From Escherichia coli (lineage in GTDB: Bacteria > Pseudomonadota > Gammaproteobacteria > Enterobacterales > Enterobacteriaceae): DNA of 64,000 bases. This document shows positions 1,821 to 50,378 of the stretch, piece by piece. A program made the translations under genes and the position numbers. The stretch lies in assembly GCF_017348835.2 (NCBI RefSeq), contig NZ_CP071375.1; one strand, given 5' to 3'. The number at the start of each line of letters is the position of its first letter. Positions within the stretch are counted from its first letter, which is position 1. The notes beneath the pieces were generated by a model that saw only the letters and a list, made by a program, of their open reading frames with translations, was not told the DNA's origin and ran no database searches.

Positions 1821-4796
<2,976 letters not shown>

Positions 4797-44750: not shown

Positions 44751-44773
44751 TGGTGTTTTAAATCCGTTCTGTT

Positions 44774-44810
44774 AAAAAAACCGTGGCGTATTTGCGCTGC
44801 GGTTTTTTTT
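44774..44810 (+). terminator. Rho-independent terminator after secF
   Basis: A-run, hairpin AACCGTGGCG...GCGCTGCGGTT, then T8. Confidence 0.7.
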
Positions 44811-44870
44811 GCCTGTTTCACAGGCAACTGAATACGGTTTGGTTGTAGAAAGCGTTCTGACATATACTTT

Positions 44871-44887
44871 GTATTAATAGTTAATAC
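44871..44887 (+). promoter_or_regulatory. Perfect palindrome (candidate antitoxin operator) in the parD promoter region
   Basis: GTATTAA-TAG-TTAATAC about 14 bp upstream of the parD start, next to the SD GGAG. Confidence 0.5.
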
Positions 44888-44900
44888 CTGGAGATCGCTT

Positions 44901-45131
44901 ATGCGCAAAATTACCTCAGTAAGCGTTGGCGAACAATTAGATAGTTTTATTACCCGGATGGTCCAGTCTGGTCGTTATGGCTCGGCCAGTGAAGTAATGC
45001 GTTCGGCACTTCGTCTATTGGAACAACAGGAATCCAGGGATGAAGCTGTCAGAAATGCTGTTATTGAAGGTCTTGAGAGCGGTGAAAGTTCGATGACGCT
45101 TCGTGATATCGCAGCAGAAAGGAAGCAATGA
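44901..45131 (+). CDS. parD: ParD-like RHH antitoxin (COG3609-type), C-terminus replaced by an IS629 end (last 4 codons lost, stop supplied by the IS terminus)
   Basis: SVSVGEQLDSFITRMVQSGRYGSASEVMRSALRLLEQQE...GLESGES matches the ParD/CopG-like antitoxin pattern; stop TGA at 45129-45131 is the first 3 nt of the IS inverted repeat. Confidence 0.8.
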   Translation: MRKITSVSVGEQLDSFITRMVQSGRYGSASEVMRSALRLLEQQESRDEAVRNAVIEGLESGESSMTLRDIAAERKQ

Positions 45132-45155
45132 ACCGCCCCGGGTTTCCTGGAGAGT
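45129..45155. repeat. IS629 copy A terminal inverted repeat (right end)
   Basis: TGAACCGCCCCGGGTTTCCTGGAGAGT. Confidence 0.85.
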
Positions 45156-45170
45156 GTTTTATCTGTGAAC

Positions 45171-46058
45171 TCAGGCTGCCAGATCATTATTTCCGATGGA
45201 AGCATAATAAGCTTTTTCTGCTTCTGCCGGAGGAATATGGCCCAGCCTTTCCAGCAATCGTCGATTGTTATACCAGTCCACCCACGTGAGTGTGGCCAGT
45301 TCCACTTCTGTCCGGTTTTTCCAGCTCTTACGGTGTATTACCTCCGCTTTGTAAAGACCATTGATGCTCTCAGCCATCGCGTTGTCATACGAGTCGCCAG
45401 TACTCCCTGTTGATGCCAGTAATCCGGCTTCCTTAAGCCGCTGCGTGTAGGCCAGCGATACATACTGAGAACCTTTATCACTGTGATGGATTGTGCCGGA
45501 CGGCCGACGGGCCCACAACGCCTGCTCCAGTGCATCCAGCACGAATGTTGTTTCCATGGATGATGAGACCTGCCATCCCACGATGTATCCGGCGAACACA
45601 TCAATGATGAACGCCACATAAACGAAGCCCTGCCATGTGCTTACCCAGGTAAAATCAGCCACCCACAACTGGTCTGGACGTTCTGCCACGAACTGACGGT
45701 TTACGCGGTCGCATGCGGCAACGGCTTTCCGGCTGACGGTAGTGCGGACCTTTTTACCCCGGAGAACACCGGCAAGTCCCATAACTGCCATGAGACGTGC
45801 CACAGTGCATCTGGCCACTCTGATACCTTCCCGTAACAACTGACGCCAGACTTTACGCACACCGTATACCTGGTGATTTTCATCGTATACGCGCTGTATC
45901 TCTTTCTTCAGCCAGTCATCGTGCTGCGCACGGGCACTGCGTTTATCCGGATGATGTCGCTGTTGCTGACAATGGTAATACGTTGACGGGGCAATATGCA
46001 GTTCGCTGCATACCGGTCCGCCCCCGTACTGCTCACGCAGCTTATCCAGCAGTGGCAT
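45171..46058 (-). CDS. IS629 transposase OrfB (DDE catalytic domain)
   Basis: 295 aa in -1 frame relative to orfA; integrase-core DDE region (ADFTWV...HHSDKGSQY...DNAMAES). Confidence 0.9.
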   Translation of the reverse strand: MPLLDKLREQYGGGPVCSELHIAPSTYYHCQQQRHHPDKRSARAQHDDWLKKEIQRVYDENHQVYGVRKVWRQLLREGIRVARCTVARLMAVMGLAGVLRGKKVRTTVSRKAVAACDRVNRQFVAERPDQLWVADFTWVSTWQGFVYVAFIIDVFAGYIVGWQVSSSMETTFVLDALEQALWARRPSGTIHHSDKGSQYVSLAYTQRLKEAGLLASTGSTGDSYDNAMAESINGLYKAEVIHRKSWKNRTEVELATLTWVDWYNNRRLLERLGHIPPAEAEKAYYASIGNNDLAA

Positions 46059-46384
46059 TATTTTTTCCAGAGGCGGTCGAACTCCGCCTTCGCAAAATAA
46101 GCGGAAGCCTGGCGAAGGATATCGTTACTGCGGCGCAGTTCACGATTTTCACGTTCCAGCTCTTTCAGACGCTGACGTTCAGCGGTGGTGAGTCCACCAT
46201 CACCACTCCCGGTATCCCGCTCATGCTGGCGAACCCAGACACGCAGAGTCTCCGGCGTACAGCCAATCTTTGGGGCAATGGAACAAATTGCCGTCCACTG
46301 TGAGTCATATTCATCCTGACTTTCCAGAACCATACGAATCGCCCGCTGACGGACTTCGGGGGAAAAACGAGTATTTTTAGTCAT
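46058..46384 (-). CDS. IS629 transposase OrfA (HTH)
   Basis: 108 aa [23 protein letters not shown]...; IS3-family OrfA with leucine-zipper-like C-terminus. Confidence 0.9.
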
Positions 46385-46411
46385 CCTGTTTACCTCTTTC
46401 TCAGGGAGTTT

Positions 46412-46438
46412 AGTCTCCAGGATTTCCGGGGCGGTTCA
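46412..46438. repeat. IS629 copy A terminal inverted repeat (left end)
   Basis: Reverse complement reads TGAACCGCCCCGGAAATCCTGGAGACT. Confidence 0.85.
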
Positions 46439-46449
46439 GCAAAAACATC

Positions 46450-46731
46450 GTGTATAAGCTTAGCGGAAAAGCTGTTGAAGATTTCAGAGGGATCTATGAC
46501 TACACGCTGGGAAAGTTTGGTGAGGAGCAGGCGGATCGCTATACCGACTCTCTCGGCACTTTTCTGGATACACTCTCTCAAATGCCCGAGATAGGGCAAG
46601 ACTATGATGCGATTCCAGAGGTAAAGAAGATCGCATTTAGGTTTCACACTGTTTATTACGTTATAAGAGTCGATGACATTCTCATTGCGCGCATTCTTCA
46701 TCAGTTGATGGAACCTCGCCGTCACTGGTAA
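46450..46731 (+). CDS. parE: ParE-like toxin (RelE/ParE superfamily), intact but separated from parD by IS629
   Basis: GTG start; YKLSGKAVEDFRGIYDYT...FHTVYYVIRVDDILIARILHQLMEP matches conserved ParE N- and C-terminal motifs. Confidence 0.8.
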   Translation: MYKLSGKAVEDFRGIYDYTLGKFGEEQADRYTDSLGTFLDTLSQMPEIGQDYDAIPEVKKIAFRFHTVYYVIRVDDILIARILHQLMEPRRHW

Positions 46732-46818
46732 TGTGAGAATTTCTTGACTCAGGATTGCGAAAATCCCCGCATCTTGGGAAACTGCGCGTAACCCTACATT
46801 TCATCCAGGTAACTTTTC

Positions 46819-47166
46819 ATGGCTATCATCCCAAAAAACTATGCGCGGTTAGAAAGCGGCTATCGCGAAAAAGCATTAAAAATATATCCGTGGGTCTGCG
46901 GTCGCTGTTCCCGCGAGTTTGTTTATTCCAACCTGCGTGAACTTACTGTTCACCACATTGATCACGACCATACCAATAACCCGGAAGATGGCAGTAACTG
47001 GGAATTGCTTTGTCTCTATTGCCACGATCATGAGCATTCGAAATATACCGAAGCGGATCAGTATGGTACGACCGTTATCGCAGGGGAAGATGCGCAGAAA
47101 GATGTCGGTGAAGCGAAGTACAACCCATTCGCTGACCTGAAAGCGATGATGAACAAGAAGAAGTGA
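46819..47166 (+). CDS. yajD: HNH-nuclease-family protein YajD
   Basis: 115 aa with HNH/Zn motif (CGRCSREF...HHIDHDHTNNPEDGSNWELLCLYCHDHEH). Confidence 0.9.
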   Translation: MAIIPKNYARLESGYREKALKIYPWVCGRCSREFVYSNLRELTVHHIDHDHTNNPEDGSNWELLCLYCHDHEHSKYTEADQYGTTVIAGEDAQKDVGEAKYNPFADLKAMMNKKK

Positions 47167-47181
47167 TTAAAACGTAAAATT

Positions 47182-47280
47182 GCCTGATGCGCTACGCTTA
47201 TCAGGCCTACGTTATTTCAGCAATATATTGAATTTACGTGCTTTTGTGGGCCGGACAAAGCGTTTACGCCGCATCCGGCA
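47182..47280. repeat. REP element pair (BIME-like) between yajD and tsx
   Basis: GCCTGATGCGCTACGCTTATCAGGCCTAC and GGGCCGGACAAAGCGTTTACGCCGCATCCGGCA. Confidence 0.8.
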
Positions 47281-47312
47281 TGAACAAAGCGCACGTTGTT
47301 AACAATCAGAAA

Positions 47313-47340
47313 TGCCGGGAATAAATCCCGGCATTTTCAT
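47313..47340. terminator. Hairpin between convergent yajD and tsx (possible bidirectional terminator)
   Basis: ATGCCGGGAATAAATCCCGGCAT followed by TTTTCAT on the plus strand. Confidence 0.6.
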
Positions 47341-47342
47341 AA

Positions 47343-48227
47343 TCAGAAGTTGTAACCTACTACCAGGTAACCACCCCAGCCGGTAGAGCGAACGTTGAAG
47401 TTGCCGTTGCCGAAGTTCAGTTCTGCATCGTCGTTCCACTGACCACCGTCGTGCCAGTAACGAGCTACGACAGAGTAGTGCCAGTGATCATAGTTCAGAG
47501 CCAGAATATGGCTGGAAGCGATAGAGTTATTAGTACGGGTCTTAATACCGTTGATTGCGTTACCGCTGTCATCCCCTAAATCGGAACCCCAGTCGAAGTT
47601 GGTGAAGCCGATGTAGCTCAGCTGACCGCCCCACAGATCGGTAATCGGCACAAAGTATTTAATTTTGAAACGGTAACCGTCCCACTCGTTTTCGTTCGCT
47701 GCGCCATAGTTCTGCCACTGGTATTTCGCATAGACGTTCATGGACAGACTCATCGGCAGACCAGTATCGATGTCGGTACCCAGACCCATGTACCAGGTGC
47801 TCTGGCGACCATCTTTATTACGACCCATGTCGTAAATGTAGTTGTTCGCGAAGTACCACTCTTTGAACGGACCGAAGCTAAGGTCAGTATTGGTCAGCTT
47901 GTCGATGGAGAAACGTGGTTCGATTTCCATAAACAGCGGAGAACCGTGGTTCCAGATACCTTTTGCATCGGAGTTACCGCCGAAGAATACCGGCGCATCC
48001 GCATAACCATAGAAGTCGAACCAGTCTTTTTTAGCGAATGCTTCGTACTCAAGGTAGGTATCGTTGCGGATCTGCGGTCCGAAACGGGTGTGATAGCTTC
48101 CGACAACGTTAACGCTCTGGTGCCACCAGTCGGAAAGATACTGCGGTTTGTCGTTTTCAGCTGCGTTGACAGTAAAAGACGAAGAGAGCGCCAGTACCGC
48201 ACCGGCTGCCAGTAATGTTTTTTTCAT
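47343..48227 (-). CDS. tsx: Nucleoside-specific outer membrane channel Tsx (phage T6 / colicin K receptor)
   Basis: Start at [22 protein letters not shown] (294 aa); C-terminal ...VVGYNF beta-barrel signature. Confidence 0.95.
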
Positions 48228-48525
48228 ATGTATGCCACTGTTTGAAAATCCCTTGCGGGAGTGAAAAAGGCGCAAATTGCGTTTCTAAATATTTCGTATA
48301 CAGAGGAGCCTATTATAAAAATCATTGCTCACAAAAATATGTTTCGTTTCACAGTTCTATCATTTACGTAATCGATTGCGTTCACGTTTACACACATTCG
48401 GGCGGGGATTGTACTGACTTTCGCCCTTGTTGCAAACTTTTACTATCAATCTGGGTTATGTAAGCGGAGTAACAAAATGATGGGGAAGGATGTTGCGGGA
48501 CGCACAAAATCGCCCCGCTATACGT

Positions 48526-48819
48526 TTACTGCATAACAGGTTGAATGTCGTGGATACGTACAAAGCCTAACTGATCCACAGAAATCCCCTTTAACTGTAA
48601 CGGAATATCAACATCGCTGGGGGCGAGGACGCTGGCAGGGGCATTAATCAATTGATTCTGCACATTGATTTCCTGAAAGTTGTCTATTGTTCCCTGAATT
48701 TGCCCATATTCAACGGTTCCGCTGAATGCGGGCAAGGGATCATTCGACTCGCCCTGAATACGTAGCGTCAGGGTGGTGCCATCTGTATCAGGCGTAATAT
48801 TCACCAGCGACATACGTAA
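48526..48819 (-). pseudogene. yajI: yajI lipoprotein gene, C-terminal fragment (3' part of the gene split by IS629 copy B)
   Basis: Reading frame continues without a stop across the IS boundary; joins in frame with the N-terminal fragment at 50130-50378 through the duplicated TAA/Leu codon. Confidence 0.8.
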
Positions 48820-48846
48820 TGAACCGCCCCGGAAATCCTGGAGACT
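48820..48846. repeat. IS629 copy B left terminal inverted repeat
   Basis: TGAACCGCCCCGGAAATCCTGGAGACT. Confidence 0.85.
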
Positions 48847-48873
48847 AAACTCCCTGAGAAAGAGGTAAACAGG

Positions 48874-49200
48874 ATGACTAAAAATACTCGTTTTTCCCCC
48901 GAAGTCCGTCAGCGGGCGATTCGTATGGTTCTGGAAAGTCAGGATGAATATGACTCACAGTGGGCGGCAATTTGTTCCATTGCCCCAAAGATTGGCTGTA
49001 CGCCGGAGACTCTGCGTGTCTGGGTTCGCCAGCATGAGCGGGATACCGGGAGTGGTGATGGTGGACTCACCACCGCTGAACGTCAGCGTCTGAAAGAGCT
49101 GGAACGTGAAAATCGTGAACTGCGCCGCAGTAACGATATCCTTCGCCAGGCTTCCGCTTATTTTGCGAAGGCGGAGTTCGACCGCCTCTGGAAAAAATAA
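48874..49200 (+). CDS. IS629 transposase OrfA
   Basis: 108 aa; differs from copy A OrfA at one residue (A vs T); ends in an A6 run next to the orfB start. Confidence 0.9.
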
Positions 49201-50087
49201 TGCCACTGCTGGATAAGCTGCGTGAGCAGTACGGGGTCGGACCGGTATGCAGCGAACTGCATATTGCCCCGTCAACGTATTACCATTGTCAGCAACAGCG
49301 ACATCATCCGGATAAACGCAGTGCCCGTGCGCAGCACGATGACTGGCTGAAGAAAGAGATACAGCGCGTATACGATGAAAATCACCAGGTATACGGTGTG
49401 CGTAAAGTCTGGCGTCAGTTGTTACGGGAAGGTATCAGAGTGGCCAGATGCACTGTGGCACGTCTCATGGCAGTTATGGGACTTGCCGGTGTTCTCCGGG
49501 GTAAAAAGGTCCGCACTACCGTCAGCCGGAAAGCCGTTGCCGCATGCGACCGCGTAAACCGTCAGTTCGTGGCAGAACGTCCAGACCAGTTGTGGGTGGC
49601 TGATTTTACCTGGGTAAGCACATGGCAGGGCTTCGTTTATGTGGCGTTCATCATTGATGTGTTCGCCGGATACATCGTGGGATGGCAGGTCTCATCATCC
49701 ATGGAAACAACATTCGTGCTGGATGCACTGGAGCAGGCGTTGTGGGCCCGTCGGCCGTCCGGCACAATCCATCACAGTGATAAAGGTTCTCAGTATGTAT
49801 CGCTGGCCTACACGCAGCGGCTTAAGGAAGCCGGATTACTGGCATCAACAGGGAGTACTGGCGACTCGTATGACAACGCGATGGCGGAGAGCATCAATGG
49901 TCTTTACAAAGCGGAGGTAATACACCGTAAGAGCTGGAAAAACCGTGCAGAAGTGGAACTGGCCACACTCACGTGGGTGGACTGGTATAACAATCGACGA
50001 TTGCTGGAAAGGCTGGGCCATATTCCTCCGGCAGAAGCAGAAAAAGCTTATTATGCTTCCATCGGAAATAATGATCTGGCAGCCTGA
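49200..50087 (+). CDS. IS629 transposase OrfB (DDE)
   Basis: 295 aa; -1 frame relative to orfA and open upstream of its ATG; 3 aa differences from copy A (V13G, A/T near the C-terminus, R/L). Confidence 0.9.
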   Translation: MPLLDKLREQYGVGPVCSELHIAPSTYYHCQQQRHHPDKRSARAQHDDWLKKEIQRVYDENHQVYGVRKVWRQLLREGIRVARCTVARLMAVMGLAGVLRGKKVRTTVSRKAVAACDRVNRQFVAERPDQLWVADFTWVSTWQGFVYVAFIIDVFAGYIVGWQVSSSMETTFVLDALEQALWARRPSGTIHHSDKGSQYVSLAYTQRLKEAGLLASTGSTGDSYDNAMAESINGLYKAEVIHRKSWKNRAEVELATLTWVDWYNNRRLLERLGHIPPAEAEKAYYASIGNNDLAA

Positions 50088-50102
50088 GTTCACAGATAAA
50101 AC

Positions 50103-50129
50103 ACTCTCCAGGAAACCCGGGGCGGTTCA
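50103..50129. repeat. IS629 copy B right terminal inverted repeat
   Basis: ACTCTCCAGGAAACCCGGGGCGGTTCA. Confidence 0.85.
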
Positions 50130-50378
50130 TAAAGTACCGATCTGGCTTTCCAGTCTTGCCGGTGTTTTCGCTTCAGGCAGAAGGTAAACCCCACTGCTGG
50201 ATTTTGCATTCAGCCTGTTTTGCTGAGTGATTTTGACCGTTTCTTTATTGAGTTGCGTCATCTCCTGGTTCAGCGTGCTGACGCTGTGTTTCATCTGTCG
50301 CACTTCGCTTTGCTGCACACAGGCGCTAAGGCTGAACAGGCTTCCCAGCAGGAGCAGTCGAAAAACGTTAGTATTCAT
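50130..50378 (-). pseudogene. yajI: yajI lipoprotein gene, N-terminal fragment (signal peptide plus lipobox LSAC), truncated by IS629 copy B
   Basis: MNTNVFRLLLLGSLFSLSAC...; stop codon is supplied by the IS terminus (TGA at 50127-50129 on the minus strand). Confidence 0.8.

Follow-up and report, generated by a model that had tools for sequence, protein, structure and literature searches.

Does a stretch of chromosome enclosed by two inverted copies of one insertion sequence form a mobile or invertible unit, or have two copies only come to rest near each other? The question is raised by a locus in the chromosome of Escherichia coli PE164 (serotype O108:H9, from pig), which we analysed within a window of 64,000 nucleotides. 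A first-pass annotation of this window had claimed that two IS629 copies bracket parE, yajD, tsx, and the 3' part of yajI, and the bracketed genes are indeed these. The locus is very probably the outcome of two separate IS629 insertions in the porcine lineage, from different donors, with the segment between them unmoved. It is an ordinary, already understood feature and represents routine insertion-sequence activity. The locus comprises the following features (window positions):

44901-45131, + strand: parD antitoxin gene, shortened to 76 codons (TIGR02606, E 1e-27; PDB ParD2 7b22, E 3e-19)
45125-45128: GCAA target duplication of copy A, left (single GCAA at the empty sites)
45129-46438, - strand: IS629 copy A, 1310 bp (IRR 45129-45153; IRL 46414-46438)
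within copy A: orfA 46058-46384; orfB 45171-46058; ALIL frameshift pseudoknot 45987-46103
46439-46442: GCAA target duplication of copy A, right (single GCAA at the empty sites)
46450-46731, + strand: parE toxin gene, intact, 93 aa (RelE/ParE toxin by PGAP; PF05016; PDB ParE matches)
46819-47166, + strand: yajD (HNH nuclease), intact (NF008448, E 5e-63)
47343-48227, - strand: tsx (nucleoside channel; T6 and colicin K receptor), intact (NF011686, E 1e-172)
48526-48819, - strand: yajI 3' fragment (DUF3251 lipoprotein), codon 84 to end (NF008575 profile positions 85-179; pseudogene by PGAP)
48817-48819: TAA target duplication of copy B, left (single TAA at the empty sites)
48820-50129, + strand: IS629 copy B, 1310 bp (IRL 48820-48844; IRR 50105-50129)
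within copy B: orfA 48874-49200; orfB 49200-50087; ALIL pseudoknot 49155-49271
50130-50132: TAA target duplication of copy B, right (single TAA at the empty sites)
50130-50378, - strand: yajI 5' fragment, 83 codons (NF008575 profile positions 1-82; pseudogene by PGAP)

Identity of the elements

The two 1310-bp copies lie in inverted orientation, as had been described (45129-46438 on the - strand and 48820-50129 on the + strand), and appear as a 1311-nt inverted repeat with arms 2381 nt apart. The pair is arranged head to head, so that both IRL ends face the 2.4-kb parE-yajD-tsx-yajI' segment and both outer ends are IRR. The terminal repeats are alike, with one 25-bp repeat type at all four ends (none expected by chance); the repeats are 88% complementary and have the TG...CA ends of the IS3 family (TGAACC...GGTTCA). 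Each copy encodes an OrfA of 108 aa and an OrfB of 295 aa matching the NCBIfam family transpos_IS3 over profile positions 1-86 and 93-369. An ALIL pseudoknot (RF01497, 116-120 bits) is found at the orfA/orfB overlap of both copies, and PGAP annotates a programmed frameshift, predicted for reading frames that stand in 0/-1 phase. The identity is 99.2% to the element annotated as IS629 in phage BP-4795 and 98.5% to the copies in Stx2a phages, both values referring to these phage copies. Under the ISfinder rule, an isoform shares at least 95% nucleotide identity with the named element. Because the length, the TG...CA ends, the frameshift layout of orfA and orfB, the duplication of 3-4 bp, and an identity of at least 95% all agree, both elements are, as far as sequence defines them, IS629 of the IS3 family.

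The IS629 of E. coli O157:H7 and non-O157 EHEC (IS3 family; isoforms IS1203 / IS3411-like) has the same 1310 bp, 25-bp imperfect repeats, TG...CA ends, 0/-1 arrangement of orfA and orfB, ALIL pseudoknot, and 3-4 bp duplications, and it is likewise present in many copies per genome; about 30 places in PE164 match IS629. There is no difference in kind from these elements; what has not been discussed before is only where the two copies sit, namely in parD and yajI of a pig strain of type O108:H9. IS elements go unmentioned in the genome paper on PE164 (PMC12233904).

The copies had been noted as differing at a few codons, and five nucleotides do differ between them, at positions 145, 418, 1067, 1127, and 1128 in IS orientation. 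The effects on the coding sequence are T31A in OrfA, G13V in OrfB, silent changes at A229 and R249, and T250A in OrfB. Four of the differences are robust, since the one at window position 46021 depends on the assembly version and is missing from RefSeq NZ_CP114128.1, in which copy A carries the base of copy B. Between the window and the current RefSeq version there are five differing sites in 64 kb, including one within copy A, and the fine detail may in small part be consensus error. At IS positions 1067/1127/1128 copy A carries the haplotype T-G-A, which it has in common with the copy on plasmid pPE164, a copy in F2_81, and BP-4795. Copy B carries G-T-G, as does the PE164 copy at record positions 767657-768966, with which its identity is 100%. 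Judging by these haplotypes, copies A and B are two IS629 sub-variants that co-reside in PE164 and come from different donor sub-variants.

Target duplications and empty sites

Each copy had been assigned a target duplication of its own, and copy A is found as GCAA|IS|GCAA (4 bp), copy B as TAA|IS|TAA (3 bp). The target duplication of IS629 is reported to be 3-4 bp long (PMC3271280), and the other IS629 copies that we examined have GTT, GTGG, and GGT duplications. A comparison with related genomes, which the first-pass annotation had proposed as a check, was done with O157 Sakai and the pig strain F2_81, and both sites are empty in both strains. Each empty site has a single GCAA or a single TAA, respectively, and the flanking repeats are therefore true target duplications. 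For alignment to the empty sites, the IS copies and one copy of each duplication were removed from the window. The IS-less sequence is gap-free and colinear with Sakai, with 26 mismatches in 3274 bp, and differs from F2_81 by one mismatch and one 5-T indel in 14.25 kb. The separate direct duplications, the colinear IS-less locus, and the different haplotypes that are found elsewhere in PE164 support two independent insertions, as had been suggested. The accompanying claim that the 2.4-kb segment has not been inverted also holds, because the locus is colinear with Sakai and F2_81 and each copy has a direct duplication. A single assembly could look the same after gene conversion between the two copies or after past inversions in even number.

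The copies are inverted and only 2.4 kb apart, and this could suggest that only one copy came from elsewhere and then gave rise to the inverted second copy by local hopping or intramolecular replicative transposition. However, the intramolecular replicative route would invert the intervening DNA and leave no direct duplication at each copy, whereas the segment is uninverted here and direct duplications are present at both copies. In addition, the copies differ at four to five sites, and either haplotype recurs in further copies in the genome. With about 20-30 copies in 5.03 Mb, chance alone would also place two of them within 3.7 kb with P about 0.25-0.5. Such an origin of the second copy is thus very unlikely, and the closeness of the copies as a sign of local hopping or of a hot spot was rejected because of the differing haplotypes and this chance expectation.

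Two separate insertions would have proceeded as follows. In the pig lineage of PE164 (E. coli O108:H9, phylogroup E), IS629 would have transposed twice by the copy-out-paste-in route, the transposase OrfAB presumably being made by -1 frameshifting at the ALIL pseudoknot. Membership in the family suggests this mechanism, including a circular copy-out intermediate. Copy A would have entered the end of parD, duplicating GCAA, shortening ParD by four residues, and disconnecting parE from the operon promoter. Copy B would have entered yajI, duplicating TAA and inactivating the gene. The inverted arrangement would then be fortuitous, and the bracketed segment has kept its ancestral position and orientation.

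The interrupted genes

Copy A interrupts the last codons of parD, and its IRL end lies 11 bp before the start of parE. The ParD stop codon TGA (45129-45131) consists of the first three bases of copy A. ParD has 76 of 80 codons here and keeps the entire conserved ParD core; in Sakai and F2_81 the protein is intact with 80 aa and ends with KHRV. The ParE protein accession is identical in PE164 and F2_81. The term orphaned, which had been used for parE, does not fit, as parD is found just across copy A and is short by only four codons. Homology to ParDE systems is evident for ParD (RHH) through TIGR02606 and PF03693 and for ParE (RelE fold) through PF05016, with PDB matches 7b22, 3kxe, 7ycs, and 8c24. 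The two genes form an adjacent antitoxin-toxin pair as in ParDE type II systems. They would not be co-transcribed as one autoregulated operon, since 1310 bp of oppositely oriented IS629 separate parD from parE. A consensus scan found no promoter-like site upstream of parE or directed outward from IRL toward parE.

The ParD and ParE sequences match those of chromosomal parDE operons (ECs_0461/ECs_0462 of O157 Sakai, ParD2/ParE2 of Vibrio cholerae, and ParD1/ParE1 of Caulobacter). The operon is intact in F2_81 and Sakai, and the genes overlap by 8 nt in the intact allele. In PE164, in contrast, IS629 divides the operon, the final four residues of ParD are gone, and parE has lost its promoter and its translational coupling. 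The toxin gene parE may be silent, or its product may still be neutralised by the 76-residue ParD, and both insertions may be neutral. The locus is a tidy natural case of an insertion sequence that disarms a toxin-antitoxin operon: the toxin gene is cut off from its promoter, and the antitoxin stays nearly whole.

Copy B sits at codon 83/84 of the lipoprotein gene yajI, and the stop codon of the yajI 5' fragment comes from the IRR end of the copy. The neighbouring tsx has its own promoter-like site at 48408-48436, within the bracketed segment.

Unlikely reading as a composite transposon or invertible segment

The arrangement had been called composite-transposon-like. The resemblance is only formal, and since the outer flanks are GCAA and TAA, the unit did not arrive as one block. 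That the copies are a substrate for homologous recombination is trivially true of inverted repeats of 1.3 kb, which can in principle recombine. A functional composite transposon or invertible cassette would mean that IS629 transposase or RecA moves or flips parE-yajD-tsx-yajI', with effects such as phage-receptor variation. In favour of such a unit, both IS629 copies are intact, with complete ends and undamaged orfA and orfB, and stand inverted around the segment, and recombination between them is possible in principle. Compound transposons flanked by copy-out-paste-in insertion sequences exist in general and are known from other work (bioRxiv 10.1101/2023.06.07.543989). However, neither the place nor the orientation of the segment departs from the native state, and the outer flanks carry unlike duplications, GCAA and TAA, instead of a shared one. 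Nor is there a second location or a foreign passenger: the inner segment has no genuine plasmid match, and there is essentially one full-length copy of it per E. coli genome. In a search of a plasmid collection with the inner segment, the full-length matches were only records of 1.2-4.9 Mb, which are chromosomes filed as plasmids, and the other matches were only distant tsx or yajD homologues. To judge by IS911/IS2/IS3 biology, a circle junction of the type IRR-IRR, as expected from the two outer ends, would be missing that half of the junction promoter which IRL provides. An inversion would also not switch tsx, whose promoter lies inside the segment. Altogether, a functional unit of this kind is very unlikely.

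Tn10, Tn5, and Tn6330 are compound transposons that likewise have two near-identical inverted IS copies around passenger genes. In contrast to these, the PE164 unit has no common target duplication, second location, or plasmid copy, its passenger is native chromosome in native position, and both its outer ends are the IRR of an IS3-family element. The mobilisation of tsx that had been envisaged is speculation. It is likewise very improbable that the locus is an active module, in which the segment flips by recombination within cell populations or an IRR-IRR compound transposon is copied out, yielding a mobile T6/colicin-K receptor gene together with a promoter-less ParE. Nothing indicates that the bracketed genes ever moved or flipped. 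A search of the literature on IS629 with composite transposons or inversions yielded nothing on this locus.

Junctions in other assemblies

One copy could also be an artefact, if the hybrid assembler had collapsed or duplicated a repeat and put it in the wrong place. The PE164 genome was assembled with Unicycler (PMC12233904), and one of the five sites that differ from the current RefSeq version lies in copy A, as would be conceivable for an artefact. However, both copies have their own target duplications matching the empty sites and distinct haplotypes, and assemblies of other samples end in or cross exactly the same parD-IRR and yajI-IRR junctions. An artefact, which had been named as a finding that would overturn the observation, is ruled out by the presence of these junctions in independent draft assemblies; its probability is next to nil, and this reading is already effectively refuted. 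Carriers were sought by exact look-up of the IS-shortened 76-aa ParD, and two NCBI assemblies were confirmed: GCA_034296255.1 also has the parD::IS629 junction with the copy-A-specific bases, and GCA_019365205.1 has both junctions. The yajI::IS629 junction is found in four Logan assemblies. The 76-residue ParD is present on 19 contigs and the 83-codon YajI fragment on 10 contigs.

The parD::IS629 and yajI::IS629 junctions can serve as clean markers of a lineage, a clone of O108:H9 E. coli of the aEPEC/ExPEC type from pigs, much as IS629 printing does for O157. The importance beyond strain typing is small; the locus reveals no new mechanism and raises no open question. Four Logan contigs (L006-L009) that had seemed to carry the 76-aa ParD were false, because they have the native GCAAAA end and it is the end of the contig that shortens the product to 76 aa. 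The 95-aa C-terminal YajI reading frame was rejected as a marker, as it occurs in 3879 blocks and is not diagnostic. In the ten places shown for it, this IS629 insertion is absent, and on most of these contigs an unrelated element of the IS200/IS605 family interrupts yajI. In the look-up of ParE, the loci are intact in all matches listed. The junction sequences of parD::IS629 and yajI::IS629 are GGAAGCAATGAACCGCCCC and GGTACTTTATGAACCGCCCC.

Anatomy and identity of the two IS629 copies

Across the 64 kb of the window, the repeat search revealed a single long repeat, a 1311-nt inverted repeat, and each of its arms comprises a 1310-bp element:

45128-46438 and 48820-50130, arms of the inverted repeat, separated by a 2381-nt spacer (repeat search)
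45129-46438, minus strand, IS629 copy A, in parD
48820-50129, plus strand, IS629 copy B, in yajI

The elements end in 25-bp imperfect inverted repeats, TGAACCGCCCCGG(GTT/AAA)TCCTGGAGA, an end type found four times in the window and never in shuffled sequences. Each copy has a 108-aa OrfA and a 295-aa OrfB, which match one half each of the NCBIfam IS3-family transposase model. Where orfA and orfB overlap, each copy also contains an ALIL frameshift pseudoknot in full length (RF01497; 116 and 120 bits). RefSeq annotates both as IS3-family transposases with programmed frameshift, and the nearest named element is IS629 of phage BP-4795 (99.2% identity). The element matches 32 places on the chromosome of strain PE164 and two on its plasmid; PE164 is thus rich in IS629, as is O157:H7.

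In the window, copies A and B differ at five nucleotides, which cause the changes T31A in OrfA and G13V and T250A in OrfB and are otherwise silent (two in OrfB). At the G13V site, position 46021, copy A carries the base of copy B in RefSeq, and the base in the window falls within the ALIL element and reduces its score by 4 bits. Because this difference is absent from RefSeq, the robust number of differences between the copies is four. The coordinates, length and inverted orientation proposed in the first-pass annotation, and its view that the copies differ at a few codons, are thus all right.

The inward-facing ends are both left terminal repeats (IRL) and the outward-facing ends both right terminal repeats (IRR). 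Host transcription, from parD on the left and from yajI on the right, enters through the IRR ends at 45129 and 50129, antisense to the transposase genes. As there are just two such cases, the shared IRR-first orientation relative to the host gene may be a coincidence.

Reliability of the sequence

The window corresponds, in reverse complement, to a stretch of the PE164 chromosome (NZ_CP114128.1). PE164 comes from Nanjing, from a pig that had diarrhoea and bloody stool, and was published, with a Unicycler assembly, as an O108:H9 hybrid aEPEC/ExPEC; the same study assigns most strains sharing its O108 gene cluster to phylogroup E and makes no mention of insertion sequences (PMC12233904). Compared with the current RefSeq record (assembly version.2), the 64-kb window deviates at five sites, of which three are substitutions and two are single-base gaps:

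37043, 37988, 38010, 38825 and 46021, sites differing between window and RefSeq

These look like polishing differences, and the window may derive from an earlier assembly version. Both gaps are inside a gene at about 37075-38591 for which the RefSeq annotation is a hypothetical protein with a frameshift.

Further carriers of the junctions were found by exact look-up of the IS-truncated proteins ParD76 and YajI83 (76 and 83 codons), which are on record in 19 and 10 contigs, respectively. GCA_034296255.1 contains the parD|TGAACCGCC... junction followed by 371 bp of the IS with the bases specific to copy A, and GCA_019365205.1 contains both junctions on two contigs. The yajI|IS629 junction is present in four Logan assemblies (ERR3970200, SRR14865169, SRR33453117 and SRR22895632), with flanks differing at 0-2 bases. 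An assembly artefact is ruled out by these identical junctions. The NCBI accession prefixes EFC668... and ELX1825... are common to both protein lists, which suggests that the two insertions co-occur in further genomes. Among 5,426 complete E. coli genomes the arrangement is found in PE164 alone. The IS629 pair is useful as a clonal marker.

Two independent insertions

GCAA stands on both sides of copy A, and TAA on both sides of copy B. The corresponding empty sites of O157 Sakai, GGAAGCAAAAACAT and ACGTAAAGTACC, contain a single GCAA and a single TAA, which confirms these as target duplications; duplications of 3-4 bp have been reported for IS629 (PMC3271280), and those extracted at other copies are GTT, GTGG and GGT. 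After removal of both elements and of one copy of each duplication, the window aligns to Sakai over 3274 bp with 26 mismatches and no gap. In F2_81, a far closer relative from a pig in Australia, parD and yajI are intact and the inner segment is identical at 2381 of 2381 bases; over 14.25 kb a single substitution and a 5-T indel are all that separate the IS-free reconstruction from F2_81. The backbone being otherwise unchanged, both insertions must be recent, and the comparison with F2_81 and Sakai means that the bracketed segment keeps its ancestral orientation.

At IS positions 1067/1127/1128, copy A reads T-G-A, as do the copy on plasmid pPE164, the F2_81 copy in dprA and BP-4795, while copy B reads G-T-G and has a 100% identical twin elsewhere in PE164 (record 767657-768966). 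The variant at IS position 145 is private to copy A. Because these haplotypes are common to other copies, A and B represent two sub-variants co-residing in the genome, which speaks against descent of one copy from the other. The haplotypes fit two separate transpositions from different donors. An intramolecular replicative event would invert the segment and leave no direct duplications, neither of which matches the observed locus. Nor can the whole unit have arrived as a compound transposon, since its outer flanks are unlike (GCAA versus TAA) and its passenger DNA is native. Two independent insertions without inversion, as had been proposed beforehand, are thus upheld by the separate duplications, the differing sub-variants and the ancestral orientation. 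For about 20-30 randomly placed copies in 5.03 Mb, the calculated chance of a pair within 3.7 kb is roughly 0.25-0.5, and the closeness of the copies therefore needs no special explanation.

The twin of copy B (locus L030, PE164 record 767597-769026) lacks a matching target duplication, its two flanks being ATG and CTC, and lies directly against a truncated phage integrase gene. An IS-mediated deletion or recombination event may thus have taken place there in the past.

It had also been considered that the pair could mobilise tsx. This is unsupported: a compound transposon should have one target duplication around the whole unit and should also occur elsewhere, and of these two testable properties the structure has neither. 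The inner segment was not found on genuine plasmids, the full-length matches in the plasmid collection being chromosomes of megabase size. In essentially all E. coli genomes, one full-length copy occupies the native site. Homologous inversion between copies A and B is physically possible; if it occurred, all junction sequences would stay unchanged and tsx would not be switched. Overall, these are two ordinary IS629 insertions of a familiar kind, with nothing surprising about them.

Consequences for parDE, yajI and tsx

In the intact allele parD has 80 codons and overlaps parE, at its GTG start, by 8 nt. Copy A is inserted after parD codon 76, 11 bp upstream of the parE start, and the IS end provides the TGA stop. 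The 76 retained residues cover the entire region of the ParD family model (residues 5-71) and also that of the alignment to Vibrio cholerae ParD2 (residues 1-69). Since the family-model region is retained, the truncated ParD is probably still a functional antitoxin. ParE is intact, with the same protein accession as in F2_81; its gene now adjoins the IRL of copy A, the IS is transcribed away from it, and a consensus scan found no promoter-like site in front of it. Most likely, parE would be silent or weakly expressed. Calling parE "orphaned", as the first-pass annotation did, is wrong: the toxin gene lost its promoter and keeps its antitoxin, 76 of 80 parD codons remaining to the left of copy A. 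The locus illustrates on a small scale how an IS can uncouple a toxin-antitoxin operon. parDE forms an accessory islet between secF and yajD (window 44751-46818) that is present in PE164, F2_81, O157:H7 and O55:H7 and absent from CUPF12, where secF is directly followed by yajD.

Copy B interrupts yajI, which encodes a DUF3251 lipoprotein, after codon 83; the YajI model matches both resulting parts. tsx and yajD are unaffected, and a promoter-like site for tsx lies within the inner segment. yajI is a recurrent landing place of unrelated IS elements. In most of the ten contigs listed (L016-L022, about 2190-4000) from the 3879 blocks in which that yajI ORF is on record, the gene is interrupted by an IS200/IS605-family element (Y1 transposase and TnpB). 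CUPF12, also from a pig, carries a different IS629 subtype (96.3% identical) near yajI codon 12 with a 3-bp duplication (locus L002, 6279-7588). The repeated insertion is probably explained by yajI being dispensable rather than by a hot spot. A pentapeptide-repeat protein gene between yajO and pgpA (54808-56379, minus strand) is intact in PE164; its F2_81 counterpart is annotated as frameshifted, with five extra T in a T-run (around window position 55128).
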